Part shown: positions 21,168-53,500 of the stretch, piece by piece
How positions within the stretch are numbered: the stretch's first letter is position 1
Layout of the letters: each line of letters starts with the position of its first letter
Assembly: GCA_008632985.1 (NCBI GenBank)
Contig: QPGO01000195.1
Coordinates: 1 to 64,000, forward strand
Direction of reading: 5' to 3'
DNA: 64,000 nucleotides
From: Psammoneis japonica
Lineage: Eukaryota
The notes under the pieces: generated by a model
Told to the model about the DNA's origin: nothing
The model's database searches: none
The model's input: only the letters and a program-made list of their open reading frames with translations
Program-made: the position numbers and the translations under genes

Positions 21168-21899
21168 TCGTGTCTCGAGTTTTCTCTCTCCGAAGTTGAG
21201 TTCATCGGTTGGTGATGCATAGTATGTTTTTTTAGAGCAGGCTGCTAGAGTAAGCTAATCTATGTTTTCATTTAATAGCTAACGCTGTAGTAGGTGGGTT
21301 TCATATCTAAGTCTACTTCAAATCTGCATCTACTCTTTTGGCTCTCTACTCTAGCTAGAGCGCTATATTGCGTTCTCTCGTGTCCCCGCTGTATCTGAAG
21401 CGCTGCTTCGTTCCCGGTGGCGTTTATTCCACAACGGTCCAAACTAAATGTTGACGTTTCAGGAGCGCTTGCATGCATTGCATAAGTAGAAATCGACGTT
21501 ATTCTCCCATTTGGTCTTCCATGCTTTGTCTGAGCTGGCACATCACATGGTCTCTTGTCTTGCCACAGTTGGCAGGGATGAATCAGTGCTCGCAGAGGGT
21601 TCTGCATTTGGATGGATGTTTACAAACAACAGCAGGCCTCTGATGGACTCTGTGCTGGACCAGTGTTTGGCAGGTCTCCCTCATCATGTCATGCTGAGAC
21701 ACATGGATTTTTTTCTGCAACACGGTTTGTGCTCAGGCTGCTGTGCCATTGTCATTTGATGAGTTGCCAGGGAGTGTGCCCCCACTGCAACAACAATGCT
21801 CTGGTGAATGTTTTGCTGAACCTGTCCATCATGCCCCCAAGCTTGCACCCCTCCAAAGATGCACTCAAACAGAAAGTCCATTTGCTCCAATGTCGTGGT

Positions 21900-25639: not shown

Positions 25640-27260
25640 TTGTCGGATGTTCAAGAGAGTCTTGATCCATTCAAGTTGCTCTGCAAGCCGTTTGCGATCA
25701 CTGCTGAGTGCCGCTCACCCAAAATCAATTGTTTTTGCAGAGCTTGGATCTCTCTTGCTTTTCACAATGTTGCGCAGCTCGATGTCATTGTGAAGGACAC
25801 CCGCTTTGCTCAGAACTTCCGCTGCCCGGACGGCAGAACGCTTGAGTGCACCAGACAAATTTTCTATCCCAATGTCGTCAAAATCATCAAGTTCTTTCTC
25901 AATGCATGCCATTGCTGCACCAAGATGAGTGCTGTGTCCACGAAAGCGAGGAATCACCTCCTTGGCAGCTTCATTTCCTTCAAGGGCCTCGTAAATTGCT
26001 GCTTCGTTTGCCATTTCTTCAGCAACATGATTCATTTGCGGGTCACTTTGCAGCTTCACAATGATGGGTGGATCTTTCCTTGTTGTGAGCAAAAGGACAG
26101 AGTCAGTGCAATCACACACGTCACACTCCCACGGGCAAAGCGATGCCACCAGATTCTTTCCTTTGGCAACTCCGCCTCCTTTTCTGCTTCTACCTGCCCG
26201 ACCAGGATGAGTTCCAGACCTTGTGTCATCATGGGTGGGGGGAAGCCGTGGCATCTTCCGATGTTCAACTCTCCTCATCTTTTTTGGTGGAGCTTTTGAT
26301 GCAGACTGAGGATGAAGCACCACATCGTCAAGACGATGATCAGCGAAACCCACAATGGTTTTGATCGCCTGAAAAACAGAAGGAGATGTTTCCCCTTTTT
26401 CGAAGGCATGAGAGATTTTCAAGATGCCTTCTTGAGTTTGTTTGCAAAAGAACCAGCGTTTGCACAAATGAATGACACCGCAGCGATGCTTGTCTGCAAC
26501 CATCTGTCCACAGAACTGGCATGCCAGGTGGAAGACCTTTTTCTTTTCAACAGACCACGATTTTGGGAGGGGCACTTCAGCTTGCATCTTCATAGAATCA
26601 AAATCGTGAGGGACTTCCCACCCGTCAATGATGTCTTGCAGTGTGGTCAAAAACAAGAATTTCCAAAATGGTTTGGTTTCAAAAGGCATTCGGTGCAAGG
26701 ACACGACGACCCTCGTGTCATCTCAACGAAGTTGAGCTCTTTGTCCAGGTGGAAGAGATTCACATTCATCCACATGTCCAACCCCAAGTGCAGCAGGGTC
26801 TCTCACTTGAGCGATGAGATCGGGCTTTCCTGTCATCTGATGATTCTGCTGAGGGAAGACGATTCCTCCACAGACAGATCCCACTCATTTCGAGCAAATG
26901 CAGCCAAGATCGACTCGAGATGATTTGTTGCATCTTCCTCTCTGTTGACGGGGTTGAAATCACTTGTCACAAATTCTGGCCGCAGGGAAAAGTCAACATC
27001 GAGAGTTGAAAGGTTTTGAGGCTTCTGCCCTTCGGCTGCCACCAACTGATCAAAATCATCCCACAATTCAACCCCAATTGGAGTGTGTGAGTGTGCAGCC
27101 CATTCTGTCGACCCTTTGCCCTGGCCTGCAGCCGCAGCATTCTGGTGCTTCAGATCAGGCAGAGGCACATCTGCATGCTGCCAAAGCGTTTGCACAGGCA
27201 TGTGCCACCTGTGGACAATGATGGAGATTGTGGAGAGATCAGCAAAGCCAGAAGCCACTC
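25640..27260 (-). pseudogene. Disrupted restriction-endonuclease-like (PD-(D/E)xK) plus protein-kinase-like gene, Crinkler/RHS-effector-like architecture
   Basis: Kinase motifs IIVK, NEAAIYEAL, GVLHNDIELRNIV, IDFG; upstream GKPDLI...PFETK; the TGA after DFG (25715) reads through in frame, as if CGA->TGA. Confidence 0.6.
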
Positions 27261-29105
27261 ATTAAAAGAGATGGATGAGTGACACTCACAGTGTCAGATT
27301 GATGGGGAGTGACAGAAACTGAAGAAGAATTGAACTTCTTCAGTGGTCAACCTCCACAATGAACAAGGACACAGCAAACAGTGGTGGTGATTAATCATCA
27401 GCACAAATGCCAATGGATCACTCAATTCCTTGGTCAGGGAACAGAAATCTGTTGGCAACAATGGCACATTCTGGTTCGAGTGCCAAAGTGGGCTTGGGTT
27501 CAAGTCACACCAACCAAGTGTCCTGGCCGTCTGGGTGTCTGCACATCTGGGAATGCCACCACAGGCATGAGACCAGGCACTTCCACCTGGCTGGACCAAA
27601 AACTGTTCCTGACCTGGAACATGTGTCTCCATCACTGAAGGGGCACCTGCAATGGTCTCTGCATGGAGACTCATCCACCATCCACCATGCAGACAGCAGC
27701 AAGGTGTTTTGTGCTGGGTCTGGGCCAGAGTTCTGCTTGCCGCATCCACCTGATGTCATCAATGCTTGAGTGCAGAGCACAACAAGACTGAGCCACTCTT
27801 GTTCAAATTCTGTCATCCAACATGCTCGCTGATCTTCCTTGTGGTTTCTTCCATGTGACCATGTGCCTGTTGTCTCAACTTGGCAATGGCACCATGCACC
27901 CACTCCTTTGAATCTGTTGTGCTTCTGCACTCAGCTGTGTCCTCACCCATCTTTTCCAGGACTTGCACTTGAGTTCCATGGCTTGCCAGCAGCAGCTGTG
28001 CACTCTGTCTCACTGACCCTGACACAACCTTGCCAAGCCCTTGTTCAGCAGACCCTCAACAGCTTTTTCAATGGCAAGGCCCTCCAGAGATCATTTCTTT
28101 GCTCTTGTCAAGCCTGCTTGTTTGCTGCAATGTTCTGATGTGAGGCACACCTTTGGACTCCCATTGACTTCCCAGCCTTTTCCTTTGGATTCTTCTTGAC
28201 TTCCCAGCCCTTGTCTTTGGGCTCCTCCTCTCAAGTTCCCAGCCCTGTGATGATGCCACTCCTTTGAGTGTCATGCTGCACCTTTTTGGCTTCTGTGCTG
28301 GAGTTTCACAGCTTGCTGGTTGGCATGCATTTGGTCTCACTAACTCCCAACCCCCGTTTGGCTTTTTGCAAACACATTGCACCAAAGTGCTGTCAATCGC
28401 CATTGCCATGTCAACCGGTCAACAACCGGGTGCAGGGGCCAAAAGCTGAGCAAAAGACCTGCAACACACACAAACTGATCTGTGAGTGCAAACTTGCCAC
28501 ATGATTGTCCACAGTCACGAGCTCATCTTTCCACTGCAACTTTGTCTGTCTGTCAGCCTGTTCCAGCGCCAGGTGATGTGCAGCCGATCTCTTGCGCGAG
28601 AGTTCTTCAAATTTGATCTCCCTGAAAATCGAAAGGTGAGTGCGCAAAAAAAAAGAAAGTTTTGTGTGCAGTCACCCTTTGATTTGGAAAAAAAAATTGT
28701 GAAGGAGTTTGTTGTGCCAAATGTGAAAATGGGCCAGTGGTGGGAATCGAGCCTGCGTGCATCACCTGGGAGCTGGAGCAGGCCAAAACAGCACACTTCT
28801 TGCTTCGGGCACCAATCCTTTGCTGCCTCCTTCTACCTCACTGTCACTGCAGTGTGCTGGAAGTGTGGGTTAACCTGCGCCAGCTTTGCTGGACAATGGT
28901 GTAGCAGCACTTAAATGTCACATTTGTGTTTGTTCTTGTGTTGAGTCCTCGCTTTGTACAGTGCGGTGCGTGGCGGGCCTCGTCTCGGCGTTCGCCTGTC
29001 TGTGCATTCGAATCAGGCGGGAGATTCTCGCACCAATTTCGTTTCGCGCCACACGCACATCACAAAAAACGAGAAAGGTACGATTGTCAAAATGCGACGA
29101 CGACA

Positions 29106-33456: not shown

Positions 33457-34536
33457 TCACAAAACGCTTTCCCAACCACGACGAATCCAAGAAATTGGCC
33501 CAGCGTCCTGCTTGATCTTTGCCGCATCCGGAGTTTGCTTGCGACTTGCCGCAGCATCCTCTGCCTTGTTGTTCAACAGATTGACCATTGCCTGCCCGAA
33601 CGCTTGTCCCATTTTAAAATATGTATCGGCACGCTCATAGTAGTGGTGGATGCCGCCATAGAGGGGTGCTCCAGTGACGTGCGCAAACGGTGCTGTTGGA
33701 ACAAAGCTCGTATAGTCATCCATGACGGTCGCAAAGTACTGCGATGCTCTCATGGCGTGTACACGATCGCAACCTGGTCCCGTACAATTCAATGTGTGCA
33801 TGCCTAGTTCTCCAACAATGGCAGGCAAGTCTGAAATGTTGAGTTCCTTCCTGATATCAGCCAACAAATTGACGAGATTGGACTCGTATTCCTTGACAAA
33901 GGGCCAGTCCAATAGATCGTTCCATCCTTGAAACCACACAAATCCCTCAATTTCATATGATCCGTCGCTGGTTGGTACATAGGTCTCAATGTTTTCGAGT
34001 GCTTCATTGATTTCATCCACCATTGCACGATATTCCCATCCGTAGTGGCTCGGTTTGACGCCTTCAAAGTCTCCCTCCCCGGAACTGGGAGGCCGAAAGT
34101 CAACAGCCAGAGTACGGCCTCCAAACGCAGTCTTGACGAGAAAGACAGTCTCATTGACATAATGATCTCCAAGCACCCATCCAAAAAGCAACTCTGGCCC
34201 AAAGTGACCTTGTGCTGCAAAGTCCTTGTTTACCGTCAATTGTCCGTGGGCATCCTCAAACTTGACATAGACGTTTTCTCGCACCTTGTACGTTCCCGAA
34301 GTTTCATTCCAAAGAGTAGACCGGTACATGTTGTGAGGACAAGAGCAATTCTGTACCAACATATCCAGGTGTTTCATGTTGCCCATGCCAACCATATTGG
34401 ACTGTCCAGCCAAAACAAACACATGGATCGGTTTCGTGCCATCGTCATGAACGTCGGGGATTTGGGGACTTGCATGTGCAGAGCTGACAGCAAAGGAGAT
34501 GAGGAGCAAAATCAAAATGAAACGCAATCCAGACAT
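33457..34536 (-). CDS. Secreted SGNH hydrolase, sialate O-acetylesterase / CE6 (SASA domain)-like
   Basis: Signal peptide MSGLRFILILLLISFAVSSAHA; FVLAGQSNM, FGPEL, WFQGWND, IHHY motifs; intact ORF with normal TA/CG content. Confidence 0.85.
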   Translation of the reverse strand: MSGLRFILILLLISFAVSSAHASPQIPDVHDDGTKPIHVFVLAGQSNMVGMGNMKHLDMLVQNCSCPHNMYRSTLWNETSGTYKVRENVYVKFEDAHGQLTVNKDFAAQGHFGPELLFGWVLGDHYVNETVFLVKTAFGGRTLAVDFRPPSSGEGDFEGVKPSHYGWEYRAMVDEINEALENIETYVPTSDGSYEIEGFVWFQGWNDLLDWPFVKEYESNLVNLLADIRKELNISDLPAIVGELGMHTLNCTGPGCDRVHAMRASQYFATVMDDYTSFVPTAPFAHVTGAPLYGGIHHYYERADTYFKMGQAFGQAMVNLLNNKAEDAAASRKQTPDAAKIKQDAGPISWIRRGWESVL

Positions 34537-37500
34537 GATGAGACACAGAAAGACGCGCTCTGGAGTCGTAACAGTGCGACAGGCCGCCATTGTCATGTGC
34601 CCCAGCAAGTTCAAAGTGACAAAAGCAAGATCGCGCTGTAGGAACGAAGAGATGTGTAAAGATCGATCGCGAAACTTTCGCGGACTCGAAAGATTCCTGA
34701 TGCCGCCAGCGGCGGCAACATGTTCACACACAAGCTTGGATCTACCTCTGCCACTCTAGAGTGGCCAGCCAATGGCAGCTGCTAGTAGCTAGCTAGAGTG
34801 GTAGACTAGAGTGGGGCCCTAAGAAACTCGCAAGAATTCGGCCTTGCCCCCGATGGAATCTTCAACTCGACCATGAACTTTTCGCAAAAATGAGCGGCGA
34901 CGCCTCGCCGATGCTGACACCTTCATCAAGCGGACAACATGTTCTTCAATGTGAGGTGAAGCTGCACCCAGCTTGTTGACCAATTGCAACATGGGCACTG
35001 ACCCTGTTGGGTTGCAGAAAGTCGATGAGGTGGTTGGTTTGTGTTCATTGTCATCATCGTCATGTCAAGTGCCAGCACATGGGTGAAAGCAGCAGCGATC
35101 CTTCGGCTGCCATTGCCTCATTTTCGAGACCCAGTGGGAAGAAAAAGCAGCAGCAGCTGTGCCAAAAGAAAAAGAAGAAACCAGCTTTTTCTTCTGAGAC
35201 ATCAGATCCATCAACAGCAGGCCAGAACAGCACCAGCTTCTGTGCCCATGGCGGGCCAGCACACTCACAGCAATGTGACAGCGCGAAGGCTGGCTGGAAT
35301 GTGCCCAGAGGTGCAGCCCATCAAAAGGCTGCAGGCAGAGTTTGCCAAACTTGTGTGTGACCTTTGTTCACACCACAAAGTGTCTCTGCCCCACTTTTGA
35401 GCCAGCGTGAGTCTGTCAGTGGTTGTTGTGGACATTGACAACCTTTGCAAGTTTCTGCTTGTGATTCACTCAACAAGCTTGTGCATGATGGTGATTGTCA
35501 AATCATCAAGCTGAGTGCAGAAAAAACATTTGGCAGTGATTGTGGTGGAAAGGGGTGCACAAAAGTTGGCCACAAAGAATTAAAAGAATGACAGCATGAG
35601 CATGTGAGAGTCATTTGTTGCCCCAGCATTGCATCAGTGCACTGCCTTGCATCATTTGCTTGTGCACCAGTGCTTCATGTGGCCACATTGCCATGCACAA
35701 CCATGGCACACATGCAAAATGTGTGTCAATCAGCACTTGCACAGCATTTCTTTGTTTGTGATGAAAATTGCCAAGTCATGGAGCAGAGTGTGGAAAGAAG
35801 GACTTGATGACATTGTGGTGGAGAGGGGCGAACAAGAGCTCATGTGGAATTTTAAGAATTGTGCAGCAACCATTTTTTTGTGATGCTGGCACATGTCTCA
35901 CAACAAATGTCACAAGGTGTTTCACACCATGATTTCTTTGTTTGCCATGAAAAAGACTGAGCAAGGATTGCTGTCAGGTGGACAAGCAGTGCACATTTGC
36001 ACAGCATGTCAGTCAGTGCTCAAGCATTGTTTTTTTGTTTGCAGTGCCAAGAGTGCACTCTTCATTCTTGAGAAGAATCAAGTCAAGATGTCTGTCCCTC
36101 CTTTTGCAAAGATCTCTGCAGGACTCCTCTTTCCACCTTGTCTTTTGCAAGCTGGAGCTTGTCTTTTTGTCAAGCTTGCTCATTTTGGTGAATGCTGTGT
36201 GCTCCCTGTCACTCGCAGCTGCTGCCAGAATGCTGTCTGATGGCCTCCCATTTAGACTGCTTCATCTCAAGCAAAAGGTTTTGCTCATTTCCAGCTGAAA
36301 CAGACTCCACAAGCTCACGAGCCCTGCTGCCTTTTGTGGAGACATCATTGCCCTGTGTGCTCTTTTTTTTTATGATGATGTGGGTCTGACCAAGTGTGCT
36401 GCACTCCTGTCATCTGGTTTGCTCCTTGCACCTTGCTGTTGGCAAGGTTGTTTTTGTGACATTCTGTCACATGCACTCTTTCTCTGTGGCCTGCATTGGC
36501 TGCTGCCTGCTCTCTGGCAGACACAGACATCACAGATCAGGGGAGGGTGTTGGCTTGCTGGATCCATGGGTGATGGCCAGACCCAGATGCCCAAGCAGAT
36601 CTCCCTGAGATCTGTTGCTCACTTTCTTTCTGACCAGCACTGTGTCATCATCACTGTCCCACAGCACATGTTAGATTGTGCCAGCAGACCCTCTGTCTGT
36701 TGGCCCCTCCCAAATGGACTTGGCTGTCCTCTTTTCAAGGCACTGAATCAGGAGTGGCATCACACAGCTTGTGCCCCTTGCAAAGCTCATTTTCATCAAC
36801 TGTTCTGCAGCGGGCTCTTCCATGTTGTTTGTTTCTGGTTCCTCAGTCACCCGTTGCACTGCACAGAGAGGAGCCCATCATGATGACCTTGAAAATGTGG
36901 CATCTGCTGCAATGAGGGGGTCTTCACTCTGGCTCACACACCTTCCACAGCAAGGAACAAATTGTCCTGCTGGAATTCATCCCAGCACAGAAACTTGGCT
37001 TCTCTGCCACAAACAACTGCAAGAGACATGAGCACCAGCTTTGCACAACCACAACATGCACCTGGCTTGTCTTGATGAATGACATTTTTGCTGATGGATT
37101 TGAGGTCAACACCAAGCATCTTGTGGCTGCCGCAGCTTGCAGCTTGCTTGGAGCTTTTTAAGAGAACTGCAAACTGGAAGTGCCCCACAGGTTGGGTCTT
37201 TGATTTTTTCATTGCCTTTGATGAGAAGGCTGTGCTTTTTACCCTTGCCCAGGCTGTCTTGCAGCTTGGCACACCCCAGCTCTCCACATGGTTGTCCCAC
37301 ATGTCCAGGTTGAGGTCCTGTTCCTTGTTGTCTCTTTGATGCTTCAAAAACATTGTTTTGTGGATCATTCCCCCATGATCTTCCAAGTGTTGCTCTGTTT
37401 CAGAACAGGCGCACCTTTCATCCACCAAGACAGACCAGCGGAGCTCTTCATGATGGCCTCACCTTTTGCTTCCTCCTTGTCAGTGCATCCAATTCATCAA

Positions 37501-37949
37501 AGAGAGCCTTGTCATTTTCTTTTTCACACACCACTCAAAAAGTTTGATTGCCAACCCTTGGGAAAGCTGTGTTCTGCCAGCCCTGGCAAGATTGTCTGCT
37601 GCAGCACTTGTGTTGCTTGTTGCTGCAGTGCTGCTGCTGCCAGCAACACTGGGAATGGCTTTGCCACACCCAAAGACCAGCAATGAGCAAACTGCAGACC
37701 GGCAGTCAAAGCTGAGACAGGAGACACACACAAAGTTCTGCCACAGGAGCATGTTGTGCAGAAGACACTTGCTGAGAGTTGCTTCACCTTTCAAAGCAAA
37801 AGACTGGCTCCCCTGTTGTGGCCCCATCTCTTGGGTTTGTCCATCTTCGCTTTTGATTGTGCATGACAATTGGTGGTGCAAAAGGTCATGATGACATGGC
37901 TTCTCACCACAGCTCACATCCCCCCAGCAACATGTCTTGGATGAACCAG

Positions 37950-38950
37950 AGCTGTGGCAACATGCCACAGCACTTTGGTGATGACCCCATGTTCAGCTGC
38001 AATTTGGTGGAACAAGACACTGTCCAGGGCATGGCGGAGGCTGCCACAATTGCTGTGGAGGAAAGGCATCATGGCAAAGCAACTGCAGCTCATGAGTGGT
38101 GCAAGAACACATCACAGCACTTGGCTTGTCCTGCATTTTTTTGTGACAAAGGCACAGCATGTTTGGCATGCTCCCATGTGGGAGCTGTTCCATGCTTTGT
38201 GCTTGGGCCTTTGCAAACATTTCCTCCATGCCTTCTTCAACCTTTGCCAAGTCACAGAAAACATGCTGTCATGTTGTTGCAACTGTTTTCGTGATGGGAA
38301 ATTCACAATGCACAGAGCTGTCCTTAAGGAGTGCCCCAAGGTGTTCGACAAAGCTGAGTTCAAGAAATGTTTCAGAGTTGCAACAAATGCATCCAGAAGG
38401 CAAAGTGATTGGAAGATGGCAAGAACTCCATTTAAGAATGGAGTCACTTGGCAGACTCATCTGTCTGGCCAAAAGCACCCTGGTCTGTTGCTCACAACAC
38501 TTGCTGCAATGACAGGTGTGCTTTTGAAGGAAGATGAGAGCCTGGAGCTGCTGGAGAGTCACTTTGCCCACCTGATGTTCATGTCTTTGAGATTGGATGT
38601 GGCATTGTCCCTCTCTCACACAAGGAAAGCTTTCTCACTCAGCTTCAGAAATGCACTCTCAAGCATCTTAAATTGTTCTGATTTGTTGTTGGCACACTCA
38701 GAGAGTGGCACTCTCAGTCTGAACTTTGCATGTCCAAGTTCCATGGTTTTCTTCATTTTCTCTTTTGTGCTCATCAGTGCAGCAATGCCAACATTTTTTT
38801 GCAGGTTTCTGTGAAGCTCTTCCAAAGATGCTTTTGAAATGGCCTGCCAATTGTGACAAGGACCACAACCACGGGAAGCTTTCTGGCTGCAACATTGAAG
38901 AGATGATGGAGAGTGGTCGTGACCTTGACAGCCAAGATGAAAAACGAAAC
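37950..38950 (+). pseudogene. Plavaka-like transposase fragment
   Basis: RRQSDWKMARTPFKNGVT..THLSGQKHPGLLL, then in shifted frames KFHGFLHF and E.LPK..LKWPA, resembling Plavaka-type transposase motifs as recalled from memory. Confidence 0.45.
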
Positions 38951-39469
38951 TCAGCTGACTTTGCTCTTTAGAAAAAAGCCTCTTCCCGAGCACATGATGT
39001 GCTGGCCTTTGCCTTGGAGTGACGGCTTTCCAGGCTGGAATTCAGATTGACCCATTGGAACGACAGACAATCTTCTTTCTTGCAAATTGCACCAAAATCA
39101 ATTGTGTCGGATCGAATTTGTGGGGCAACCAAAGCCATCTCCATTCTGAGGTTCCGTTTTTGAGCAAGATCAAAAAGAGACTGAATCACACAACGTCTCC
39201 ACTGTTCTGTCACAACACTGAATTGGGCAATGTGTCATCCGCCTGCAAATTGGCGTGATGTTCGCGCTGGGGTGACGTGCTTCCATCATGGCACGAATGG
39301 CTGTCCAGCGACACAGCAGATGCGTTGTCACTCTCCTCTGGCTGATCAGCCACAGCAATTTCCATCCCATCAGCAGTCTCATCCAAGTTTCTGCGACGGG
39401 TCATTTGCTCCAAGCATTCAAATTGCGCTGCATCTTGTTCCCAGTCGTGGTCATCTTCAGCAATGGCAG

Positions 39470-40900
39470 AGGCTCAAAGTCGGCAATTTTTACGGACCAA
39501 AAACACAACAGCAGCTGTCACTGCAAGCAGCAAAGGATCAGGTGGTCCGTGCAAGTTCTTTTCTTTGTCATTGCCAAAGGAAATCTTGCACACTCCCCTG
39601 AGCAGCTGCTTGTTGACGGGCAAGCAACCATTTTGCTTTGGAACTTGAGCGGTTTCGCTTCCCATGAGGTTGGTGAATGCTGCGATGCGATCGTTCCGTT
39701 TCCTGATTGCTTCCTCCATTGCCTCTTTGCATCATCAGATGCATTGGAAGGGGTCTGTGGAGGCTTCAAGTGCACCAGAGATTGAACCAGTGCATGTGTC
39801 ATTTGACGCATTGGTGTCAAAGCCAAATTCAAGTTTTCCTCGCGCTGGCATGGCTTGCTTTCATGTCGTTCGCATTGGTCATCCCCACAGCGTCCGCTGC
39901 CCAAAGGTGGCTCTTGCGGTCCTCATCTGCACCCATCAAAACAATGGCATCACAGTCTTCACCGTTCCATTTCAGACATCGCTCACGAGATGGGACAGGT
40001 GGGATTGGCATTTGAGGATCGTTCTTGTCAAGTGACTTCTCATGCTCGTTGATGCGAGCTTTGTTTGCAACAAAGTGGCGCATTCCTGCCCCGCAAACGT
40101 GCTTCTTCCCAGTTTTCGCACCATGGAGCAAACGAAAAACTTCTTCCCATTCAATGGCAGTTGGGTCATGTCCCATGTCCCAACAGGCCACATCACACCA
40201 CTCGACAGCATGGGCAGGTGCATCGGGAAGCAGATGGGCCACCTGACTGCTTTTGATGTCCTCTGACGGCTCTCCAAATGTGTCAACCGGCCACATCTTC
40301 TTCTTGGCGTCACTGGATTGACTTTTGCCATTGAGACCAGCAGTTGGATCATCAGTTTTCATGCAAGCTTCTGTCACCTTGAACTCTTTCACGACATTGT
40401 CGTCGCTCTGTCCTCCTTGGACGGGGTGATCAGGTGGTTTGGCCCGTTTAAAAGCCTCCGCCCAATCAGCACGTGGTTTGCCGTCTTTTTCAGCAATGTC
40501 CACAACACTGAAGTGGGTGACCACATCGTCGGACAATGCCTCATCCAACGAACAAAAGAAAGCCCCCTGCTCCTTGAGGAAATCAATCATGTCCTCCTCT
40601 GAGCCTTCAATCTCCTCGTTCAGTTCATTGAGATGTCTTTGATGGCATTTTGACTTTCTTTTATTTAGTCGCTTGTGCATGCAGGGGGGAACTTCACCAA
40701 GAGGGTCAGTCATCTCTGTCCTCTCCTCTCTGCTGCTTTGTCACCATTGTGCAGGCAGTGAGAAATGCACCGCCGAGTCTTTGTGTGGCGATGTCAACGC
40801 CGACGGCGCCGAGTCTTGGTGTGGCGATGTCCAACGTCGATGGCACCGAGTCTGTTGTCTGCAGCTGTCAATGTCTCTTCAACAATGCGCGTGTCACTGT
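39470..40900 (-). pseudogene. Disrupted HNH-nuclease-like gene (Crinkler-HNH-like)
   Basis: SQVAHLLP...GMRHFVANKARI.EH...D HNH-like spacing; downstream PPDPLLLAV.AA in a shifted frame; Tyr absent. Confidence 0.5.
40771..40853. repeat. 36-37 bp tandem repeat, about 2.3 copies
   Basis: cgccgagtct at 40771 and 40807, caccgagtct at 40844; copies differ by CG->TG/CA (cgacggcgcc vs cgatggcacc). Confidence 0.75.
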
Positions 40901-41589
40901 GCAGCTGCCTTGACCATTTGTTGACGCAATTGCATCCCTCGCCGGATTGAAGGACTTTTTTTCTGTTGACTGCGTGTCTGCAACGGTGGACTTTCAACTT
41001 AACTTGCCAGTGGAGGATGCGAGGACCTGCTCTTCTCACAACTGCACCAACTCCCCATCTTGCAGCACTGCCTTGTCTCATGACCTCACTTTCGACGACT
41101 TTGATGTCAAGCAAAGAAGATGTTGTTGTTGCTGTTGTTCTGTTGTTCTTGATGTTTCAGTGCTCAGCGCCGCTCGGTGCTTGGTGCATGTTGCAGAACA
41201 ACTCCAAGTCATGAGTCTTAAATCATGTCCCGTGTGACCCTCTCGACTCGAATGCTTTGGAAGTTTTGGCCAGACTTTGACCACCTGTGTCTTGCGAGAC
41301 GGCAACAGGCATGTGTTGTTCATGGCATCTGGCACTTCAAAAAAGAATTGACTTTTTGAGGAGCCCCTTCATTGCACGGACAAGTGTGAGAGTCAATTTT
41401 CAGTGATTGGTCAGCTGACGTTCACACTTGTTGCTTCACCCCCCCCCCCCCCCACTCTGCTGGGCCCCACCCCACATGTGTGCTGAACTTCGCATCTGTG
41501 TGCTGTCAGTGTCCATCAAAATGGGTGTTTGGTTTTAAAAATGGGAGGCTGATTTTTGCACATGGCGTCACAGAGCTGGGATGGAAAGC

Positions 41590-42730
41590 AGCTTCCTCTG
41601 TCTTGTTGTTCAACAGATTGACCATTGCTTTTGCCTGCCCGCCCAGCAAGGCGCTTGTTGTCCCGCTTTAAAAGAACATGCATCGGCGCACTCACAGTGG
41701 TGGTGGATTCCACCCAAGAGGGGAGCTCCAGTGACATGCACAAATGGCTCCATTGGAACAAAGCTTGCACAGTTATCCACGACAGTTGCAAAGCCCTGCA
41801 ACGCTTCTCTCACAGCATTTGTGCCATCGCAACCTGGCCTGGCCCCATGCAATTCAATGCGCGCATGCCTGGTTCTCCAACAATGGCAGGCAAGTCCAAA
41901 ATGTTCAGTTCCTTCCTGATGTCACCCAACAAATTGATGAGATTGGACTCACACCCCTTGACACATGGCCAAGGAGGCAGGATCATTCCACCCTTGAAGC
42001 CACACAAGCCCCTCTCAACTTCACAAGAGCCACTGTCACTGGCAGGAGGCAAACAGGTCCTGATGTTTTTGAGTGCTTTGTTGACTTCATCCACCATTTT
42101 ACAATGGCCCCATCCACAGTGGCTTGGCTCAATGCCTTCAAAGTCTCTCTGCCCAGAGCTGGGAGGCCCAAAGTCAACAGCCAGAGTGCAGCTTCTTCCA
42201 AATGCAGCATTGATGAGAAAGACAGTCTCATTGGCACATTGACTGCCAAGCACCCATTCAAAAAGCAACTCTGGCCCAAAGCAACCTTGTGCTGCAAAGC
42301 CCTTGTTTGCCATCAATTGTCCTCCCTGCATGTCCTCAAACTTGACACAGACATTTTCTCACACCTTGTGTGCTTCTCCCAAAGTTTCGCTCCACAGAGC
42401 ATCAGACTGGTGCATGTTGTGAGAGGACAAGAGCAATTCTGCACCAACAAGTCCAGGTGTTTCATGTTGCCCATGCCAACCACATTGGACTGTCCAGCCA
42501 AAACAAGTGCACAGATCAGTTTTGTGCCATTGTCATGAATGTCAGGGATTTGAGGCCAGCATCTGCAAAGCTGACAGCAAAGGAGATGAGGAGCAAAATC
42601 AAACACAATCCAGGCATGATGAAACACACAGAAAGACACACTCTGAAGTCACAACAGTGGCAACAGGCTGCCATTGTCATGTGCCCCAGCAAGTTCAAAG
42701 CACCAAAGCAAAGATCATGCTGCAAGACTG
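41590..42730 (-). pseudogene. Hypermutated duplicate of the SASA esterase gene at 33457-34536
   Basis: Colinear with about 33550-34640 in the same orientation; LAGQSNVVGMGNMKHLD, FGPELLF and LPAIVGE preserved; Tyr->Cys/His changes, frameshifts. Confidence 0.92.
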
Positions 42731-44897
42731 AAAAGATTGTGAAAAAATTGAAGATTCCTGTGCCAAAGAAAAGATCATGCTGCAAGAATGAAAGACAGTG
42801 AAAAAAGACACTTTGAAATTTTGATCATGTCATCTGCACTTTTCTTCCCTGATGCCCCACCAAGGCCACATCACAAATCATCACTCATCACATCCAGAAG
42901 GCATTGTGCCAATCTCACACTGGCATCTCATCTCTTGTGATGTGCCCAGCTGACATCTCAGATGGAGAAAAGTGGGAGGATCAAGTGAGGCAAACAAAAA
43001 AGAAGATCATCAAGTGTGAAAAAAAAGGACAACTTGATCATGCTTGCTTTGAAGTTTGAGCTCTCCACATGTGAGACCTGATTCTTTCACAGAGAGGTCA
43101 CCTCTCTTTCATGTTAAAACCCCATCTCCATTGCTTTGCTTCACACTGGCCCCACCAGGAAAAGAAGAAGAGCCAGGTCATCACTGTGATGATGTCAATG
43201 ACTTGCAAAGCAGCACACGGAGCTGCCGCCACTGCAGAGCTCCGTTCTTTGACCAAGTTGCTGCAGAGAAGAACATGAAGTTGATGAAACAGAGCTTGTG
43301 AAGAATCATGAAAGAAGAAAGTGTTGCTGATGCAGAGAAAGGGGGAAGGAGTGATGAAGCAAAAATTAAAAACTGGTTTGTGCAGCCTGCCTGTTGTGGG
43401 AGCTTGTTGCTCAAAAGCAGTTGATGCCCACATCATCAGGCACCATGTGACAGAACTGAAAAATGTCAACCAAGGCACTCACAGGGTCAAAAGCATCTTT
43501 CATGTTCCAAAGTCTTGGCAAGGTGGTTTTGGCAAATTTCAACTGGAAGCACTGACCGCCCATGGATGCCATGTGGTTTTCATCATCATTTTGTGAGCTT
43601 GAGCACACTTTGCCTGTGACAACAATTGCAAGGACTGTGCACCACACATGTGCTCACCCATTGGAAAATTGTGGGTTGACCCCAAGTTTCCCCCCCATTT
43701 GTTTTGTGACAGTCTCTTTGTCATGATGGCAAGCATCAATGGAGAGAGCAGCACTCAGTGCCAGCCTGATGGAGTGGACTCTGCTGCCAAAATAAAAAAG
43801 ATGTAAAGCTTCTTGCTGTTGTCTGAACACAACACCGCATTGCAGTTCAGGGAATTTTCCCAGGCCTGATTGTGGGCTGTGGCACGTGTTTCTTCCTCAG
43901 AAGTCACTGTTTTGCAAATGGCTCAGCAGGATCACCAGACTCTCAAGGCCAGCCACAAGTGTGTTTTTATTGCATGCCCCACATCTTTGTTTGCTCTTTT
44001 GGCTCAACTTTGTCGCGGCACCTCATGTGGAACGTGGAGTGTGGTTGAAGGAAGAAGCTGCTGCTCAATTTCTGGGTCAAAATTGATGTGTGGCACTTTG
44101 ACACAAAGCAGACAAGGCAGCCAACAAGAGCAAGGAGGAGCTTGGAAAAATGGCAATGTCCATCAAAAGATTCTTCAAAAGCAGCAAAAGAGAGCTTGGT
44201 GCCATTTGGGGCTTTCTGACCGACAAGAGCCTCTCAAGACGGAAACCAAGAAGGCCGCCAGTGCAGTCAATCCAGACATGGCAGAGGAGCAAGCTGGGGA
44301 ATGTGAGTGTTGATGGCACTGAGGGCACACCAGGTATAGTCAGAAGTAGACAGACAGAAGCCCTCCGAAAGTGATCAACAAATGACAGCATAAAAAAAAT
44401 GAAGCATCCGGACAGGTGACTGCTGGCTACCGTAAGACTGCCGGTAGAGCTCTAGAGCCACTGCGACTCTAGAAGCAGCTAGTCAGCAAGAGCCATCAGC
44501 TAGGAAGCAACCTGTTGTAGAACAAAGATGAGGACTGCTTGTAAACACTTTGAACTGGCAGTGTGGAACATTGCAGTGGGTTCGGGATGAATGACTCGGA
44601 CTGAAATGGAAAAGCTGCCATGCCGAAAATATCTCAAGCATGCAACAAAGGTTTCATCACGACTTATCAATATATCACTAGGGCCCTAGCGTTTAAAATA
44701 AGAGGGTCGCCGCCCCATGTCATGCAACAAGCTTAAAAGAATTGAATGCTCATAAGATATAAGATCATCTACACAGCAGGTGATATCGAGAATGCATGCG
44801 TAGTTCCTATCCATGAGAACCATCGCAAAAGGATCGCTACTAACAACCCAAAGTGTTCCGTTCGAATCGGCAATATACATTCATACCTCTTCAAGCT

Positions 44898-45535: not shown

Positions 45536-48500
45536 CTCCCACGGATCGTTACATTTTTTTCAGTACTGAGCTAATCTGGCCAGTTAACAAAAATCAAAAA
45601 GTGGAGAACGACTTACAGACCAAATTTTTGTACCAGCCTCTACACATTTTTCTCGTAGACACCATGGCGCTGTTGCGTCGTTTGCACCGTCGTCGTCGCG
45701 TCTTTCTATGGGGTGAGTTATGCACAAGATTCATCTTCTTTGTCCATGTCATGTGTACGCGTTGACCCAGTCTCGACAAGTGCCGTGCGTGTTACAAAAT
45801 GTGTCGTCGACTGAAGCGGTGTGATGACTCGTTAAATTTGTCATCCTCTAACTTTGTTTCTTTTATTTTACCTTCTTTTTTTGTTTGCACTCCAATGTAC
45901 AGCATTTTCTTGTTAAAACACAGGCATGAGTAAGGGGTGACAGAGTATGAGGCGAGTTGTCAACCTTGCAACAAGCGTTTGTGGTCGTCACATCATCTGA
46001 TGGCATGTTCTTTCTTTGTTTTTCGACTGGCCGTTCCTTTGACTTCTTTCGCTCTTGTGGCATCTGCGCTTACCCCTTGTTCTGCCTTGTCTTTCGACAC
46101 GTCAACATCACTTGATGCGGAAACAAAATTGAAGCCTTTCAAGTTGACACAAGGCTTCTCTTTGTTGCCTCTGCATTTGGAAGGCCTGGGAATGACGCTC
46201 ACCAACGCGAGCGCTCTGAGACTCGGGCTCATTCTGGATTTGTGGACAAGGCACCCCTTCATGTTCTTTGCCTTGTTCCTGCGGAAGGTTTCAACAGCAT
46301 GTGTGTCCATTCCAAGGGATTCGAGACTGACTGAATCGTTCCCTGCAGGGTGTTTCCGCACCGAGTTCATCACAGACAGCACACGACAGCCTTCCTTTCT
46401 TCTCGGTGTGGAACCGGTTGTTGACAGATGAGCACAAGCTTTTCGAGAAATTTCATTTCCAATGATGTCTACTTTCAGCAAGTGCCTTTTGGAAGCTGTG
46501 CCAAGAAGCATCTGATTGGCACTTGGGCGATCCGTTCTTGTCGGCTCTCCAAGAATGCTCAATTGTTTGTCTTGTCTGCTTCGTTTTGCCTTCAGATCGA
46601 TCGGCATTGCAGCGGCATTGAAGCAACTGAGAGAATGTCAGCTGCAGAATTAGCAACTCACAATCCTGGGCTGTTGCATTTCTTGTTCCATTGTAGATGA
46701 TTCCTCCCTCAACCATGTCTTCATCTGTGTCCACGCTAAATTCATCAGATGTGTCCGACAAGGCAGCTCCATCGTCGTCGGAGATAGACGATGACGACTC
46801 GCTCGCGACAGCGCCCACTGCACTCGAAGCGACATGTGCCGAGTTGTGGGAGACGGCTGAGCATTCCACATCACTCTCGCACCAGCAGTCACTTTCGTCA
46901 TGAGACGGGTGTGTGCTTTCGACAATGCTCGTCGCACCTTTGCTGCGGTCGCTTGGGCAAGAGCTGCAGCAGCTTGAGTCTTGCAAGCTGTCAGTTGCAA
47001 CACAGTTGGAATCCTCGTCAGATTCTTGGCGCATCACCCATTCATGGCACTCACTCATGTCTGTCAAGGGAGTTCCACCGGCAACATTCAAACGCGCACC
47101 CTTTACCCTGCTCTTTGCTTGAAAGTCCTCTGCTTCCATTTTGCAAACATTCGCAAACATGGCAATGTCGAGGCTCTGTCTTCCCAAATCGCACACAACC
47201 TGGGCAGCCCGGTGCATGTTGCGTGCGTTTTCACAGAGATCGCGTCTGTCTGACGGAGTTGTTCTCTTGGTCTGCTTCTTTGACCTGACAAGCTCTCTGT
47301 GTGTGGCAAGACACTTGCGCATGAGGCCCAAGAAGAATGACCTTCAAGTGAGTCCGTCTTGGTCCGTGGGGAGCGTGTCGCCTGCCTTCAAAAATTTGTT
47401 TCCTTTCTCACAAAGATCGTCCATTGCCATGCCATGCTTTCCTTCATTCATCTTGACAGTGTGGTTGATGAATTCTTCCAGCAATTCTGTGGGAGTCATG
47501 CTGGACGCCACCTCCATCCAAGAGAAGCATGGATTGACGTACTTGGGCTTTCCCGACGTCTGGAAGAGAGGCATGCTCTCGATTAGAATCTTGCACAGGG
47601 TGACCGAATCCGAGTGTTTTGCACTTGAGTCGTGAAGTGGGAGAAGATCAGCAGCTTTGACAAGCAGCGCGTGAAATTGCAGAACTGCGTCCGTCTTGCA
47701 TTTGCTTTGTTGGTCTAGGAACTCTTGAAATCTTTTACCGAAATGAAGGATTTGTTCCAATTCAAGTTCACACTCCTCCGTCGCAGAGTCAATGGCAGCT
47801 TTCCCTTCGGGTTCCGACACGAAACGTTCCAGGAAAAGCAGCTTAAGTTCGCCCTGGCCCATCTTGAGAAGCTCTTTTGCTGCATGAACATCCGATTTAA
47901 TTGGGTCCGCGGTGATGCGTTTCATCCCAAGCATCTCCTTCAACGGCTTCAGGTTGCAGTTGTGGCCAAGCGGAAGATTGCTTCTAAAAGGTGGAAGCCA
48001 ACATGGAGGTCTCCGTGCATTGGTGTCAATGTTTCGCAGGCTGCGAGAAGAGCGTCTTCATCGCTGGCGTGCGAGCCATCCAGGATTGCTTTTTCACAAA
48101 GATCTGCGATGCACTTGTGCACTCCTTCAATGGTTTTCCAGTCTCCGCAAGTGTGTGTCTTCATGTGCGGCAATCGTGCAGTCTTCGTCAACTTCCCACA
48201 ATCGTCCTCCTCCAACGTCTTTGTAAGTGCAAAGAGCTCCCGCAGGTGTTCTCGAAGCCCATCGGCCCTTGTCTCTGCATGGTGTTAGAGTTCTGGCCAC
48301 ACCCACAGCGATTTCTTTTTTGCGTGGCGGTTCCATGTGCCGACCATGCGACTGTGCTCATCAGCCAAGTCGGGTCCAGCAACGTCAATTTTGGAACTCC
48401 ACCAGTCGACCGCCCTACGTTGAGATTCCGTCATGACACGGTTGCGGTTGCCTGGTGCAATGCGCTGTCGAACCAGGTTTTCTTTCAAAAAACTGCATTG

Positions 48501-50905
48501 AAACACAGCCTTGACACGTCGACAACACTCATCTGGTGGGGATTCCATTCCTGGAAGCCTTGGGATTTCTTGAGTGCTGTCTCCAGCAAAACGAGGATGC
48601 GACTCAAGGGACGGAGACTGATGCAGTGTCCATCCGTCCAATGGAAGGGTGACCAGCATCGTCTCTCCCGCTTTCACTTGTTTTTCTTTTGATGATTTTG
48701 AGGTTGGCACACAGCATGCCTGTCTCGCTTTCAACAGGCACAACATCTGGCAGTGGTCCTCCGTTGCGGGCACGCTTTCGACTGCTTCGAACAGTGAGTC
48801 TCTTCTTCAAAGTGAAGACTTCGATGTGCCATGACGTCGCCCGCTGTCCATTTGTAGAGACGCCGTTTCAAGTGTGCTGTCATTGTTCTGTGAACCGGAA
48901 TCGATGATCGACCACCACGCTGAAATGCCATGTGCCGAAAGAACTGAAAATTGTCGAAAATCAACGTGAGCACCGAGTCTTCAAGGATGCCATCGCGCTG
49001 CAACTCTCGAAACCTTTGGTGGTTGTCTTTCATCCATGTTGACGCTTTGGATTTGTCAACCTGAAGGCCCATGTGGCTTGCCATTTCGTCATTTCCCTTT
49101 CCGCAAGCCATTGACCCAAGTCGCAGAACAAGCGCAAGGTTCGACAGACTGTGGGCATTCCTCATCCTGAGGATCATGAGGCACATTGCAAAGCAACGTG
49201 CATGTTTTAGCCCCTTGCACTTTTTTTGTTTCTTTGTGTGTGGTGCCTCGGCGACGTCGGTCCACGCCCACAGCAGAGGGCACGTTTCTTGAAGATCTCG
49301 CATCGTGTCAGACAGGGACAACAGCGGCTGGTCAAAGTCGTCCCACCCATTCTGGTGGATGTTTTCAACACGTTCTCCAATCTGCTCATCAAGTCTTTCC
49401 GCCCATTCTTTTCCTTTTAAGATCGGGACGTCTGCAGGATCAATCTCGTCGGCCTGACAATTAGACGATGTGGAATCAATGTCAAATTCTCCCAATTGTG
49501 CCTCAATGCTTTAGCCACCCATGCAAGTCGAATCATTTCATGTGAGTCTCCACACCTCCCTTTCCAGCTGTTGGATTATGGGAACGAGTTGTGCCAATGG
49601 GTGAATGATTTGGGTCTTGCTCTTTGCGTTCCCGTGCATGAGTTTCCCAAGGCCCGACATGTTGGCAAGTGATGACAGTCCCTTTCTTGACCTGCTCGCG
49701 TTTTGTCCCACAACTCAACGTTGCCCATGAACACATCATAGAATTTTACTTCATGACAAAGTCGTTTGGCTGTGTCCTCGCCCGTGACGACCACAGTGAG
49801 GGCGTCACCTCGATTGTGAAAACCTTTGATGATGTCATCCTTGTCTGTGTTGTCCTTGGCAAGCGTCTCTCCTGTTAGATTGGACATCACAGTGCAGTGC
49901 ACCACGGTGCATGTTTCATCGCCACGTTTGAGTGCATGTGGCCCGGTCTCGGGCAATCCAAATCTGGACGGAGAGAAATCTCGGCCGCTGCCAACAACGA
50001 GCACCGTGTCACCTGTGCATTTCAAAAAGGCCTCTTCCATCAGCAGGCGCCTCAAATTGTTCGCATTGCCGTCTTCATCAAACAAAGCCTGACAATGGCG
50101 CAAATTGAATGGTGTGTCAGCACCTTTCTTCAAACCTTCGCCTTTTGTCTGAGTGCCTCGTGTCAACATGCCAGTTGACTTCCTCGACTTGCGAGGAGCG
50201 CGTTTCTTTTTTGAGAAACCACCATTTGGAGCAAAAGTGGAGAGCCGATCAACGCACTCATCATGACTGCTTGCAACCAAGGCCAACCTTCTCATCTCTT
50301 CCGCACTCTTTTCACCTGCCCCAGTGGTCAAAGATTTCGCATCTACATGCGCCGTTTTTCCCATGCTGTCGGTGCACTTGACCGTTGTCTGGAGACAATG
50401 GAAAGAATAAAAGTGGCCTTCTTCATCACGCCTGTCAATTGACTTTCCTCGTGAAAGAGATGAACCCATGTCATGTGCACTGTGCCGGCACTGCGTGTGA
50501 TTCTAAAGGATGATGTGCTGTGCTTAAGGTAAAATTATAAAGATTGTTATCGTGCACTCGTTCGCTGCCGGTGCACTCGAAGTCTCGCTGAGTCAGCTTC
50601 GACGAACAATTCTGAGTCGGGCTTCCAAGACATCTTTTGGATCTTTGAGATCCGATTCTCACATGACACAGGTGAGCGCCTTGCATTGTGTGAAAGTTGA
50701 CGAAATCCGGTTCAAACAATGCCCTGGTAATGCATGATGCAAATAAATGAGCATCCGCCATGGTCTGCATGCATGCAGTGCGTGCATCGCATCGGCGGGA
50801 GGTGGAGGGAGCTTTGTACCAAGTCTAGTAGAATTTTACGCGCCACGTAGAAATCGCGTAGAAAAATTAACTGGCCAGACTGAAAAGTGCAACGCTCCGT
50901 GGGAG
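45536..50905 (-). mobile_element. About 5.4-kb terminal-inverted-repeat element carrying a fragmented DUF6589-like gene
   Basis: Left end CTCCCACGGATCGTTACATTTTTTTCAG...TCTGGCCAGTTAA (45536-45587); reverse complement of right end CTCCCACGGAGCGTTGCACTTTTCAGTCTGGCCAGTTAA (50867-50905); interior TA-depleted. Confidence 0.7.
46450..50469 (-). pseudogene. Fragmented large ORF, DUF6589-like putative transposase
   Basis: Successive minus-strand fragments: LIFDNFQ..R...QRGGRSS, PMHGDLHVGFHLLEAI, FQTSGKPKYV, MAMDDLCEKGNKFLK (resembles the xPxDLxxEHxNxxxK motif). Confidence 0.5.
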
Positions 50906-51549: not shown

Positions 51550-53500
51550 GGTTGACAATCAAGCAGTGATCGGGTTTGCCAACATTTCCAAAAATGTGAC
51601 AACAAAAATTGCATCACTCAACAACCAACAACATCTCAAGAGATGGAAACAAGAAAAGTGACTCCTCTTTGCACTTGAATTAAAAGAGACAACAATGCAC
51701 AACAAACATTTGAGAAGGACAAGAAGCTCTTGAATGCATGGAACCAGAAGAGAGTCAATGAATCGCTCTTGTTTTGAACCTCTTGACCTGTTCTGTCCAT
51801 GATGGTGGTTGGTTGAAAGGTCGGTGGTGGTTTTTTTATGTGACTTGCAGCTTGAGGCATGTTGATGCATGAACACATGGCCCATGTGTGGTGTCACCTT
51901 TGGAAAGTGCCACTTGTGGAGCTTGAGTGGACAACTCTCTGTGCCAAGCTTTGTCCGCCAAATGCTCCGTCAAAGTCCAGATGCTGCCACATCCCACCCG
52001 ACCATTGACACAAAACAGTTCTTGCAAAATGTTGTTGCCTGTTTCCCTCTTCCTCTGCAGAGCAGCCCTCTTGGTGACAGTGCTGCCCACATGCCAGAAT
52101 GTGCTCAAGAATGCTTTCCATTTTGCCAGCAAAGATGCCCAGCGCGGGGCTGTGTGGGCTCGAATCTCTCTCAAGACAAGCTGACATTTGTGCCTGGCAC
52201 TGGCGGCAATGCTGAGCCCTCCTTCCTGTTTGACTTCCCAGGAGTGTGCCCAGATCTCCTGCATGCTGAGTGGCTCAACCACAAGAGTCGCTGTCTTTGT
52301 CAGTTTTGTCAGCAGGATGTGCCAAGGCTGCTCTGGCCATGTGTGCGCAAGGACAGCTGCGACAGCGCTTTCTGCTGTCAGCAAAGAGTGTGAGCTGGCT
52401 GGACTGCCCAACCCCACACTTCACAGCTCCTTGGCAGTCACCCCAAATCAAGTGCCAACTTGGGGTCAACCGCACCTGGCTGGTTGCAATGCAAAGACAG
52501 CTGTGGCAGCACTTTGTGACAACAAAGAGAGTGCGAGCTGGCTGGGCTCCCAACCCCACACTTCACAGCCCCTCAGCACTGGCTCCCAATCAAATGCCAG
52601 CTTGGGGCCAACGGCTGTGAAGCCATCATTGCAAATCCCTGTGCCTGCCCCCTCACACAGCTTTGCACAGGGTCAACATGTGTGGCCTTTGCAAGATGGG
52701 CCCTGGCTGGCTGCTGGCTCCTCACCCACACGGCTTGCACAACAAGCCACCACAACACAGAGCACTGTGGGGTGAGTGCAGCACAGCCCAAACAAGCACA
52801 CCATGCTGAGATCACCCAGAGTTGGCTGCTGTCCTGGGGCTCCATTCAAAGCTAAGCTGGGCTGCTTGGCTCCTTGGTGTGCAGCACATGCTTGGCATCA
52901 CATTCTCTTGTTGCCAAGCAGCCGCATGGCATGTGCCCACCATTTGTGCCTGCAACAGCGACCCCAGCCACAAAGAAGCCAACAAAAAGTTGAACCTGGT
53001 TTTGTGGTTGAAGAGTGAAGAAACTGTGAGTGAAGTTTGGTTCAAGATTTGTTGGCAATGCCAAGTGGGCAACCAAAGAGAGGCGCCAAAAATGGCTGTT
53101 TTCTTGCTCATTTCTCAAGAGGAGCTTGCGCTCATGATGCAGGGTCTGAAGCAAGCACCAGCCAAGACAACAGTTTTTTTTTCTCTCTGCCCCACTTAAA
53201 ACACAGCCTTTGAGTCAATGTGGTGCTCCTTCAACAACTCACGCACACTGGGAAGAGCAGCTGGAGCCAGGGCAGCTGGCCTGGCAGGGCTTGGCTGACA
53301 CCCAAGCTGGGCTGCTCAGCCTGGTGGCACACACTCAGTGCCACATTGTCACCCTCCTGCAACTGCAATGTGCCCCCACTCTTTGCACCTGCAGCAACCA
53401 CCCTGGATCAAAAGAAGCCAGTGCAACTCTGGCCATGGTTGCATGGTCAATTGTGTGTGTGTGTTCAACGGTTGATTCCCCTCTTTTTTTCTCTTTTCCT
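51550..53500. mobile_element. Hypermutated block 5, family unidentified, with an internal repeat of period about 143 bp
   Basis: TA and CG depleted; gagctggctgg...cccaaccccacacttcacagc at 52392 and 52535. Confidence 0.65.

Follow-up and report, generated by a model that had tools for sequence, protein, structure and literature searches.

The stretch of DNA analysed here, 64,000 nucleotides of contig QPGO01000195.1 from Psammoneis japonica (the window), carries two copies of an esterase gene, 6.9 kb apart and in the same orientation (Table 1). Copy A is intact. Its product matches the Pfam family SASA (PF03629) at 85.8 bits against a curated cut-off of 24.8 (E = 4.2e-24) and has 1,971 homologues, the best named of which come from diatoms (Phaeodactylum, Nitzschia, Mayamaea, Licmophora and Entomoneis); no searched protein of the window exceeds 81% identity to a database entry. 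The densities of TA and CG in copy A are normal (33 TA and 52 CG within the aligned part). Copy B is truncated and dead, with an in-frame stop at codon 106 (CGA>TGA) as well as frame-breaking indels, and its longest frame has no Pfam match at E ≤ 0.01. A preliminary description of this DNA had noted that the B segment aligns with the esterase gene, and the local alignment bears this out, with 923 of 1,108 aligned columns identical and 64 gap columns in 22 indels. The duplicated segment comprises most of the coding region of A and about 70 bp upstream of its first ATG, and the last 31–32 codons are missing in B. Self-blastn of the window returned three repeat pairs, of which A/B is the sole long one and the other two are short tandem repeats; tblastx of the window against itself yielded nothing beyond the A/B pair.

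Table 1. Features discussed in the text, in window coordinates
Feature	Coordinates	Strand	Remarks
Copy A, intact esterase gene	33457..34596	-	Open frame, 379 aa; carbohydrate esterase / sialate O-acetylesterase family
Duplicated segment of A	33551..34666		Local alignment; blastn E = 0.0
Copy B, truncated dead esterase duplicate, TA and CG erased	41588..42751	-	83.3% identity to A
Sole surviving ancestral TpA in B	41669..41670 (A 33615)		Context TTTAAA
Second control, near full-length pseudogene of a ~499-aa protein family	39249..40707	-	In block 3; TA erased, CpG partly kept
Third control, kinase-like gene copy	about 25626..27202	-	In block 2; DNA-level alignment with metagenome contig L002
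Block 1, TA- and CG-erased	6960..13160		1.5 TA/kb, 7.7 CG/kb
Block 2, TA-erased	21625..28830		1.8 TA/kb, 16.0 CG/kb
Block 3, TA-erased, sharp edges, contains B	34825..44330		2.7 TA/kb, 16.7 CG/kb; flanking TAs at 34820 and 44335
Block 4, TA-depleted, CpG normal	46075..50340		5.9 TA/kb, 51.3 CG/kb; long minus-strand frames in series
Block 5, TA- and CG-erased	51840..53500		1.2 TA/kb, 12.6 CG/kb

Comparison of the two copies revealed that TA and CG have been almost completely converted in copy B. Among the 33 TA sites of A, 1 is kept in B, 17 became CA, 10 became TG and 5 changed otherwise. The preliminary description, counting by hand, had arrived at one survivor of about 30, in TTTAAA, with most losses going to CA or TG on both strands; the alignment gives 27 such outcomes of 33 and the same single survivor. 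The 52 CG sites of A behaved similarly (4 kept, 26 to CA, 18 to TG and 4 other). The remaining 14 dinucleotides of A are 57–88% kept, and the lower values among them arise from overlap with TA or CG (for example, ATA>ACA). With the strands collapsed, A>G occurred at 30 of 66 adenines in TpA and at 42 of 500 in other contexts (Fisher p = 7e-13), and C>T at 44 of 106 cytosines in CpG and 25 of 434 elsewhere (p = 2e-18). The change is thus context-specific, with a higher rate at TpA, as had been suggested. All of the example strings quoted earlier were found in A and B, and the predicted protein changes HYGWEY>HCGWGH and HHYYERADTY>HHHCECADAC were both reproduced. By contrast, the statement that stretches lacking TA and CG are nearly identical was too strong, as 102 of 934 sites outside TA and CG differ (10.9%) in addition to the 22 indels. 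Losses are estimated at 3.5 for each TA, and substitutions at 0.12 for each of the other sites; because the pair shows the saturated end state only, the resulting ratio of at least about 30-fold is a lower bound.

We next consider polarity, for which A was aligned with its 60 best esterase homologues and B was read codon by codon on the frame of A. At the 20 codons whose residue changed when a TA was lost, the outgroups side with A in every case (20/20). For the 15 tyrosine codons, 511 of 889 outgroup residues equal that of A and 1 of 889 equals that of B, and at codons that lost a CpG the outgroups side with A at 13 of 15. The CA and TG states in B are therefore derived, the state of A is the ancestral one, and the change came after the duplication; the converse, that CA or TG was ancestral, had been named beforehand as the outcome that would speak against the earlier claim. 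At 9 of the 57 other changed codons, B holds the residue of the outgroup majority and A does not (for example, 125 G, 154 I and 305 V), so either the duplication is old or B derives from a paralogue other than the present A. On these residues, copy A need not be the direct parent of B. We also observed that a 31-base stretch in copy B is tandemly duplicated (42703-42793; 60-bp spacing, 94% identical), its source being the region upstream of the esterase start. This tandem duplication postdates the duplication of the esterase gene.

Both copies are represented in contigs assembled independently from a public sequencing run. Logan contigs of this run, X1, show 0 differences from the window over A (33000-34393) and none in the 1,042 bp over B (41440-42481); over 42671-44500 they differ at one position. 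The depth of the X1 contigs is about 57–63x over A and B each, and at this roughly equal depth (~60x) each copy is single-copy. In run X2, the kind of which is not on record, contigs lie over 33373-34919 only, and one of 1,175 bases corresponds to 33431-34605, the span of gene A, with 0 differences. No X2 contig lies over the block; the pattern is transcript-like, but X2 is not recorded as RNA and we draw no conclusion about expression. Run X3 and most of run X2 do not cover the stretch, which proves nothing.

Copy B lies within block 3, one of five blocks from which TA has been nearly removed. Together, the blocks contain 75 TA in 28,840 bp (2.6/kb), compared with 1,386 in 35,160 bp (39.4/kb) outside, and the ratio of observed to expected TA in kilobase windows of the erased blocks is 0.00–0.13. 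The longest gap without a TA is 231 bp outside the blocks and up to 1,508 bp inside. CpG is reduced from 54.6/kb outside to 19.5/kb in the blocks. The losses of TA (-36.8/kb) and CG (-35.1/kb) are balanced by gains of CA (+39.4/kb) and TG (+32.2/kb), and GC content is unchanged across the blocks (0.48–0.54). Loss of TA is uniform across the coding and non-coding parts of these 28.8 kb. The edges of the blocks could be resolved to tens of base pairs, and about 230 bp separate the left edge of block 3 from the start codon of A. The original copy was spared, as proposed earlier, since at this distance A keeps its 33 TA and 52 CG, its 379-aa frame and its SASA match. TA-free DNA retains only TGA as a stop codon, which produces long false open frames in all six frames (113 of at least 110 aa). 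The depth of block 3 is a mosaic of repeated parts (summed depth to 244 compared with ~61; 54 of 123 contigs 90–95% alike) and single-copy parts that include B. The earlier claim that the process acts on sequence other than transposable elements once it lies in the block is upheld by B, a single-copy (~60x) derivative of a host-type SASA esterase; of the 113 block frames, none matches a transposable-element domain. Taken with the polarity, these data make it very likely that the conversion of TpA and CpG is real, followed the duplication and is confined to the blocks.

The same substitutions recur in two other genes. A pseudogene in block 3, compared by tblastn with its relative P0121, is 58–66% identical in three frames and contains one TGA where the relatives have arginine; its depth, 61.8, is that of single-copy DNA. 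The family to which it belongs (P0121–P0128) has the invariant motifs AHLLP..H.xEWY.VA.W and R.HF.ANK.R.N and no Pfam match. The kinase-like copy in block 2 is 65% identical to its best homologue, and the Pfam kinase matches of its family are weak. We defined a conserved column as one with tyrosine or tryptophan in at least 60% of homologues. Esterase copy B keeps tyrosine in 0 of 12 such columns and tryptophan in 4 of 4, whereas copy A keeps 8 of 12 and 4 of 4. The block 3 pseudogene keeps tyrosine in 0 of 6 and tryptophan in 6 of 6, and the block 2 gene keeps 1 of 4 and 4 of 4, its surviving tyrosine being in a TTAC context. The tyrosines were replaced mostly by cysteine and histidine, as TAY>TGY/CAY predicts.

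When metagenomes were scanned for the kinase-like family, five loci were recovered, among them L002 and L003, which at 99.8% identity to each other represent a single locus; the corresponding scan for family A2 was negative. The block 2 copy aligns with L002 at the DNA level with 1,164 of 1,517 aligned columns identical. At the 58 TA sites of L002, the window has 1 kept, 26 TG and 11 CA (37/58 to CA or TG), and at its 96 CG sites 32 are kept. Beside the intact relative of the block 2 gene, L002 1-2000 and 5001-5638 and L003 2736-3797 are TA-poor and rich in CA and TG (TA observed/expected 0.08–0.34); L003 3001-3797 contains 4 TA (0.08) with CA at 1.94, and L002 5001-5638 has TA at 0.12. These TA-poor flanks suggest that the same erasure is present in another organism.

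The losses of TpA and CpG are separable, as seen in block 4, where TA is depleted and CpG is not, and in the L002 pair, in which 1 of 58 TA and 32 of 96 CpG are kept. Much CpG is also retained in the sub-blocks at 25–27 kb and 39–41 kb. Loss of TA thus saturates first, and loss of CpG comes later or needs a further condition. We found that the TpA change also depends on the following base. When the esterase and L002 pairs were pooled, A>G at T-A-N occurred at 30 of 63 TAC, 23 of 62 TAT, 5 of 26 TAA and 5 of 29 TAG, and a competition model gave relative rates by 3′ base of 1 for C, 0.46 for T, 0.32 for A and 0.12 for G (likelihood-ratio statistic 13.6, 3 degrees of freedom). Among the TAs that survive in the blocks, 25 of 75 are in TTAA, compared with 69 of 1,386 outside (p = 3e-13), an excess with which the TTTAAA survivor in B agrees. 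A T before or an A after is found at 62 of 75 survivors and at 579 of 1,386 TAs outside. The estimated survival is 0.44 for TTAA, 0.21 for TTAG/CTAA and 0.02–0.06 for the rest. Along copy B, the order of CA and TG outcomes is random (15 runs compared with 13.6 expected for TA sites; 22 compared with 22.3 for CpG sites). Neither one processive pass along a single strand nor the editing of a single RNA strand would be expected to leave such an alternation, which points to many separate hits on duplex DNA over time.

The explanation that we favour, to which we assign a probability of about 55%, is that copy B is an old duplicate in block 3 that was subjected to adenine deamination at TpA and to CpG decay, both directed by domain. 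Copy B would have arisen as a truncated DNA duplicate of a host esterase gene, and within the block two context-specific transition processes would have run to saturation. The first would convert A:T to G:C at TpA, on either strand independently, to give CpA or TpG, with a preference for A followed by C or T and the slowest rate at TTAA. Its agent may be a DNA adenine deaminase of the ADAT/TadA type (tRNA-adenosine-deaminase-like) aimed at silenced chromatin, as proposed for Bigelowiella natans. The second would be the ordinary deamination of 5-methylcytosine in methylated repeats, converting C:G to T:A at CpG more slowly and separably. Targeting would be by domain and not by pairing of two copies, leaving A untouched about 230 bp beyond the edge. 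For the TpA part taken alone, we put adenine deamination as the chemistry at somewhat less than an even chance. What the data show is the substitutions with their contexts and polarity, their limitation to the blocks and their return in two further genes; the enzyme, the chromatin mark and any present-day activity are what we infer. The tRNA substrate of ADAT/TadA has the sequence U33-A34-C35. The T required before the mutated A and the C preferred after it recall this substrate, a resemblance that is an inference, not a test.

The closest known system is that of the chlorarachniophyte B. natans, the subject of a preprint on TpA hypermutation in the integrated DNA of giant viruses and virophages (Mettrop et al., bioRxiv 10.64898/2026.01.13.699255). 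The preprint counted 231 new mutations in two viral regions integrated in that genome, of which 230 were A>G/T>C, every one at TpA; the rate exceeded background about 1,000-fold, and an ADAT2-like DNA adenine deaminase is the candidate that its authors put forward. The window shares with the system so described the restriction of A:T>G:C to TpA, the production of CpA or TpG on either strand and the confinement to delimited regions beside a normal genome, as well as the long-term signature of TpA depletion and CpA/TpG enrichment in clusters of kilobase size. It differs in degree, as TA observed/expected is given as 0.45 in the virus region and is 0.00–0.13 in the window blocks, and in its targets, which include a duplicate of a host gene and need not be viral. 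Loss of CpG accompanies loss of TA in the window, whereas the main text of the preprint makes no mention of CpG; nor does that main text discuss the preference for TAC and TAT or the sparing of TTAA. For the CpG part, repeats in diatoms are described as carrying CpG methylation in blocks as long as 30 kb, between which lies gene-rich DNA without methylation (text of PMC5124317). Decay of CpG by 5-methylcytosine deamination resembles the change to TpG or CpA at 44 of 52 sites in B and the depletion in blocks alternating with normal gene-rich DNA, but it cannot explain the loss of TpA, and some TA-erased sub-blocks have normal CpG. In the literature searched, TpA erasure is reported in no diatom, nor in any organism besides B. 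natans. The window is probably a second case of TpA-specific hypermutation, in an unrelated alga, probably a diatom to judge by the named homologues of a single protein.

Several observations weigh against the explanation of domain-directed adenine deamination and CpG decay. A>G and T>C on the other strand are indistinguishable from sequence alone, so a chemistry directed at thymine fits equally well. None of the 12 differences between the window and the X1 contigs is at a TpA, and there is no sign of present activity. No library type is recorded for X1, which is possibly the very sample that the window was assembled from, so that its use as a check for artefacts is not fully independent. Nothing found in the blocks marks them as transposable or viral: a Pfam scan of the 113 block frames of at least 110 aa returned no transposable-element or viral domain, and scans of IMG/VR with two block gene families returned no relatives. 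Absence of domain matches is partly expected, because all tyrosine and many arginine codons are gone. Finally, CTAG has 1 survivor in the blocks and 75 copies outside, although TAG is a poor target in the pairwise data. As CTAG is nearly all lost, we rejected a model of the target with one neighbouring base as a complete account.

Modification of the thymine rather than the adenine is the alternative that survives best, although we consider it unlikely. The T of TpA would be modified, for example to 5-hydroxymethyluracil by a TET/JBP-type enzyme, and would mispair with G to yield T>C; T>C at R-T-A fits the symmetric data as A>G at T-A-Y does. In dinoflagellates, the T at TpA is preferentially replaced by 5-hydroxymethyluracil. 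A frame in block 4 has a sub-threshold match to DUF6589 (E = 0.0045), which alone leads nowhere. There is no evidence of such a base in the present organism, and the only experimental precedent, that of B. natans, is attributed by its authors in the preprint, as a proposal, to adenine deamination. Photoproducts formed at TA by ultraviolet light, considered on general grounds, were set aside; the sharp-edged confinement to blocks and the laboratory result in B. natans favour an enzyme.

A process triggered by homology is less probable still. Repeat-induced point mutation (RIP) of fungi changes C to T mostly at CpA, creates TpA and strikes both copies of a duplication. Like RIP, the process in the window consists of context-specific transitions that inactivate duplicated or foreign DNA and leave blocks of skewed dinucleotides beside normal genes, and a RIP-like variant could be triggered by duplication and strike only the copy in silent chromatin. 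B was a duplicate at its origin, and parts of block 3 are repeated, as their summed depth and the 90–95% similarity of 54 of 123 contigs attest. Against this, TpA is destroyed in the window rather than made, the direction opposite to that of RIP, and GC content is unchanged. Copy A retains its dinucleotides, open frame and Pfam match, in line with the earlier contention that, unlike in RIP, the partner was not mutated. Single-copy stretches (B and the 39249-40707 pseudogene, at a depth of ~60) are fully TA-erased, although their copy number at the time of mutation could have differed, and no two blocks of the window are similar.

Editing at the RNA level is very improbable. In such a scheme, an ADAR-like enzyme would deaminate A to I after U in a transcript, and B would be a reverse-transcribed, edited retrocopy. 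ADAR does favour a U before the edited A, according to the Discussion of the B. natans preprint, and the hyper-editing of repeats and viruses by ADAR and APOBEC in animals, as presented there, likewise directs deaminase-type transitions against selfish sequences. Those enzymes act, in that account, on RNA or single-stranded DNA and leave strand-coordinated clusters, whereas the window shows random alternation of strands fixed in chromosomal DNA; one edited RNA strand would give one outcome. The A/B alignment also reaches about 70 bp upstream of the first ATG of A, and TA loss is uniform over coding and non-coding DNA.

Slightly more doubtful again is a native composition of the blocks, in which the blocks are integrated viral or other mobile DNA that had come to lack TA and CG elsewhere, and B descends from a host gene that this DNA took up long ago. 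The targets in B. natans are integrated viruses, according to the preprint, and two block gene families have no Pfam name. A functional genome needs tyrosine, however, and conserved tyrosines were replaced in 21 of 22 columns while tryptophan was kept in 14 of 14; moreover, the block genes have stops and frameshifts, IMG/VR holds no relatives of the two families searched, and CpG status varies by sub-block. Base modifications cause systematic long-read errors, and X1 is of unrecorded library type, but miscalling of heavily modified bases in silent DNA as CA or TG is the least likely account of all: X1 contigs match B at 1,042 of 1,042 bases, the 22 indels and 10.9% other substitutions mark B as truly diverged, miscalls on the two strands would yield mixed calls with some TA and CG remaining, not a lack of both, and the same pattern is found in the unrelated metagenome contigs L002 and L003.

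Further features were observed at the blocks. By self-blastn and tblastx, the blocks of the window are unlike each other, A/B excepted. Block 3 has no convincing terminal repeats. Aligned with each other, its two flanks scored 22, whereas the highest score from shuffling was 25. A palindrome, CTCTAGAG, lies just beyond both edges of this block, at 34754-34761 and 44450-44457. It has 3 copies in the window compared with 0.28 expected, and 0 of 100 shuffles reach 3; the wider flanks align without significance. At the left edge of block 3, one X1 contig has 23 other letters in place of 100 bases (34726-34827), possibly an allelic structural variant exactly at the boundary. In block 4, the frames at 46456-47343 and 47347-48057 are separated by one in-frame stop. 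Block 4 has no Pfam family, with the sub-threshold match to DUF6589 as its only hit, and comparison of a block 4 frame with the ESM Atlas gave scores of at most 0.77, which are uninformative. This block may be the youngest target in the window. In block 5, a tandem repeat examined for exchanges of CA and TG proved too short for counting. Matches of block frames to CoV_ExoN, RNase_P_pop3 and DUF6589 were disregarded, being far under the family cut-offs.

In the literature searched, B. natans provides the only prior TpA-specific hypermutation, where the enzyme is a proposed one. A second, saturated case would mean that the process is not peculiar to one species or to viral inserts. The combination of a dead copy of a host gene, its live copy and 60 outgroups yields a clean, polarised spectrum, and its preference for TAC and TAT and sparing of TTAA are properties that any candidate enzyme must reproduce. 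Comparison of the deaminase repertoires of the two lineages offers a direct route to that enzyme, and a natural adenine editor of double-stranded DNA with a defined context would be of interest for base editing. For annotation, TA-free blocks explain long false open frames and failed searches for repeats and domains, and constitute a trap for gene prediction. The erasure ends so abruptly at its boundary that a gene about 230 bp beyond is protected. We tentatively propose, while holding it to be somewhat less likely than its negation, that an adenine deaminase acting on DNA, guided by chromatin and descended from the tRNA A34 deaminases, serves as a mutational genome defence here and in the rhizarian B. 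natans, and perhaps across the SAR (stramenopiles, alveolates and Rhizaria) group. If this is true, the deaminase and CpG methylation would together rewrite every TA and CG of silenced DNA to CA or TG. All tyrosine codons would thereby be removed and any gene that lands there killed, host genes included, in a process that stops within a few hundred bases of active genes.

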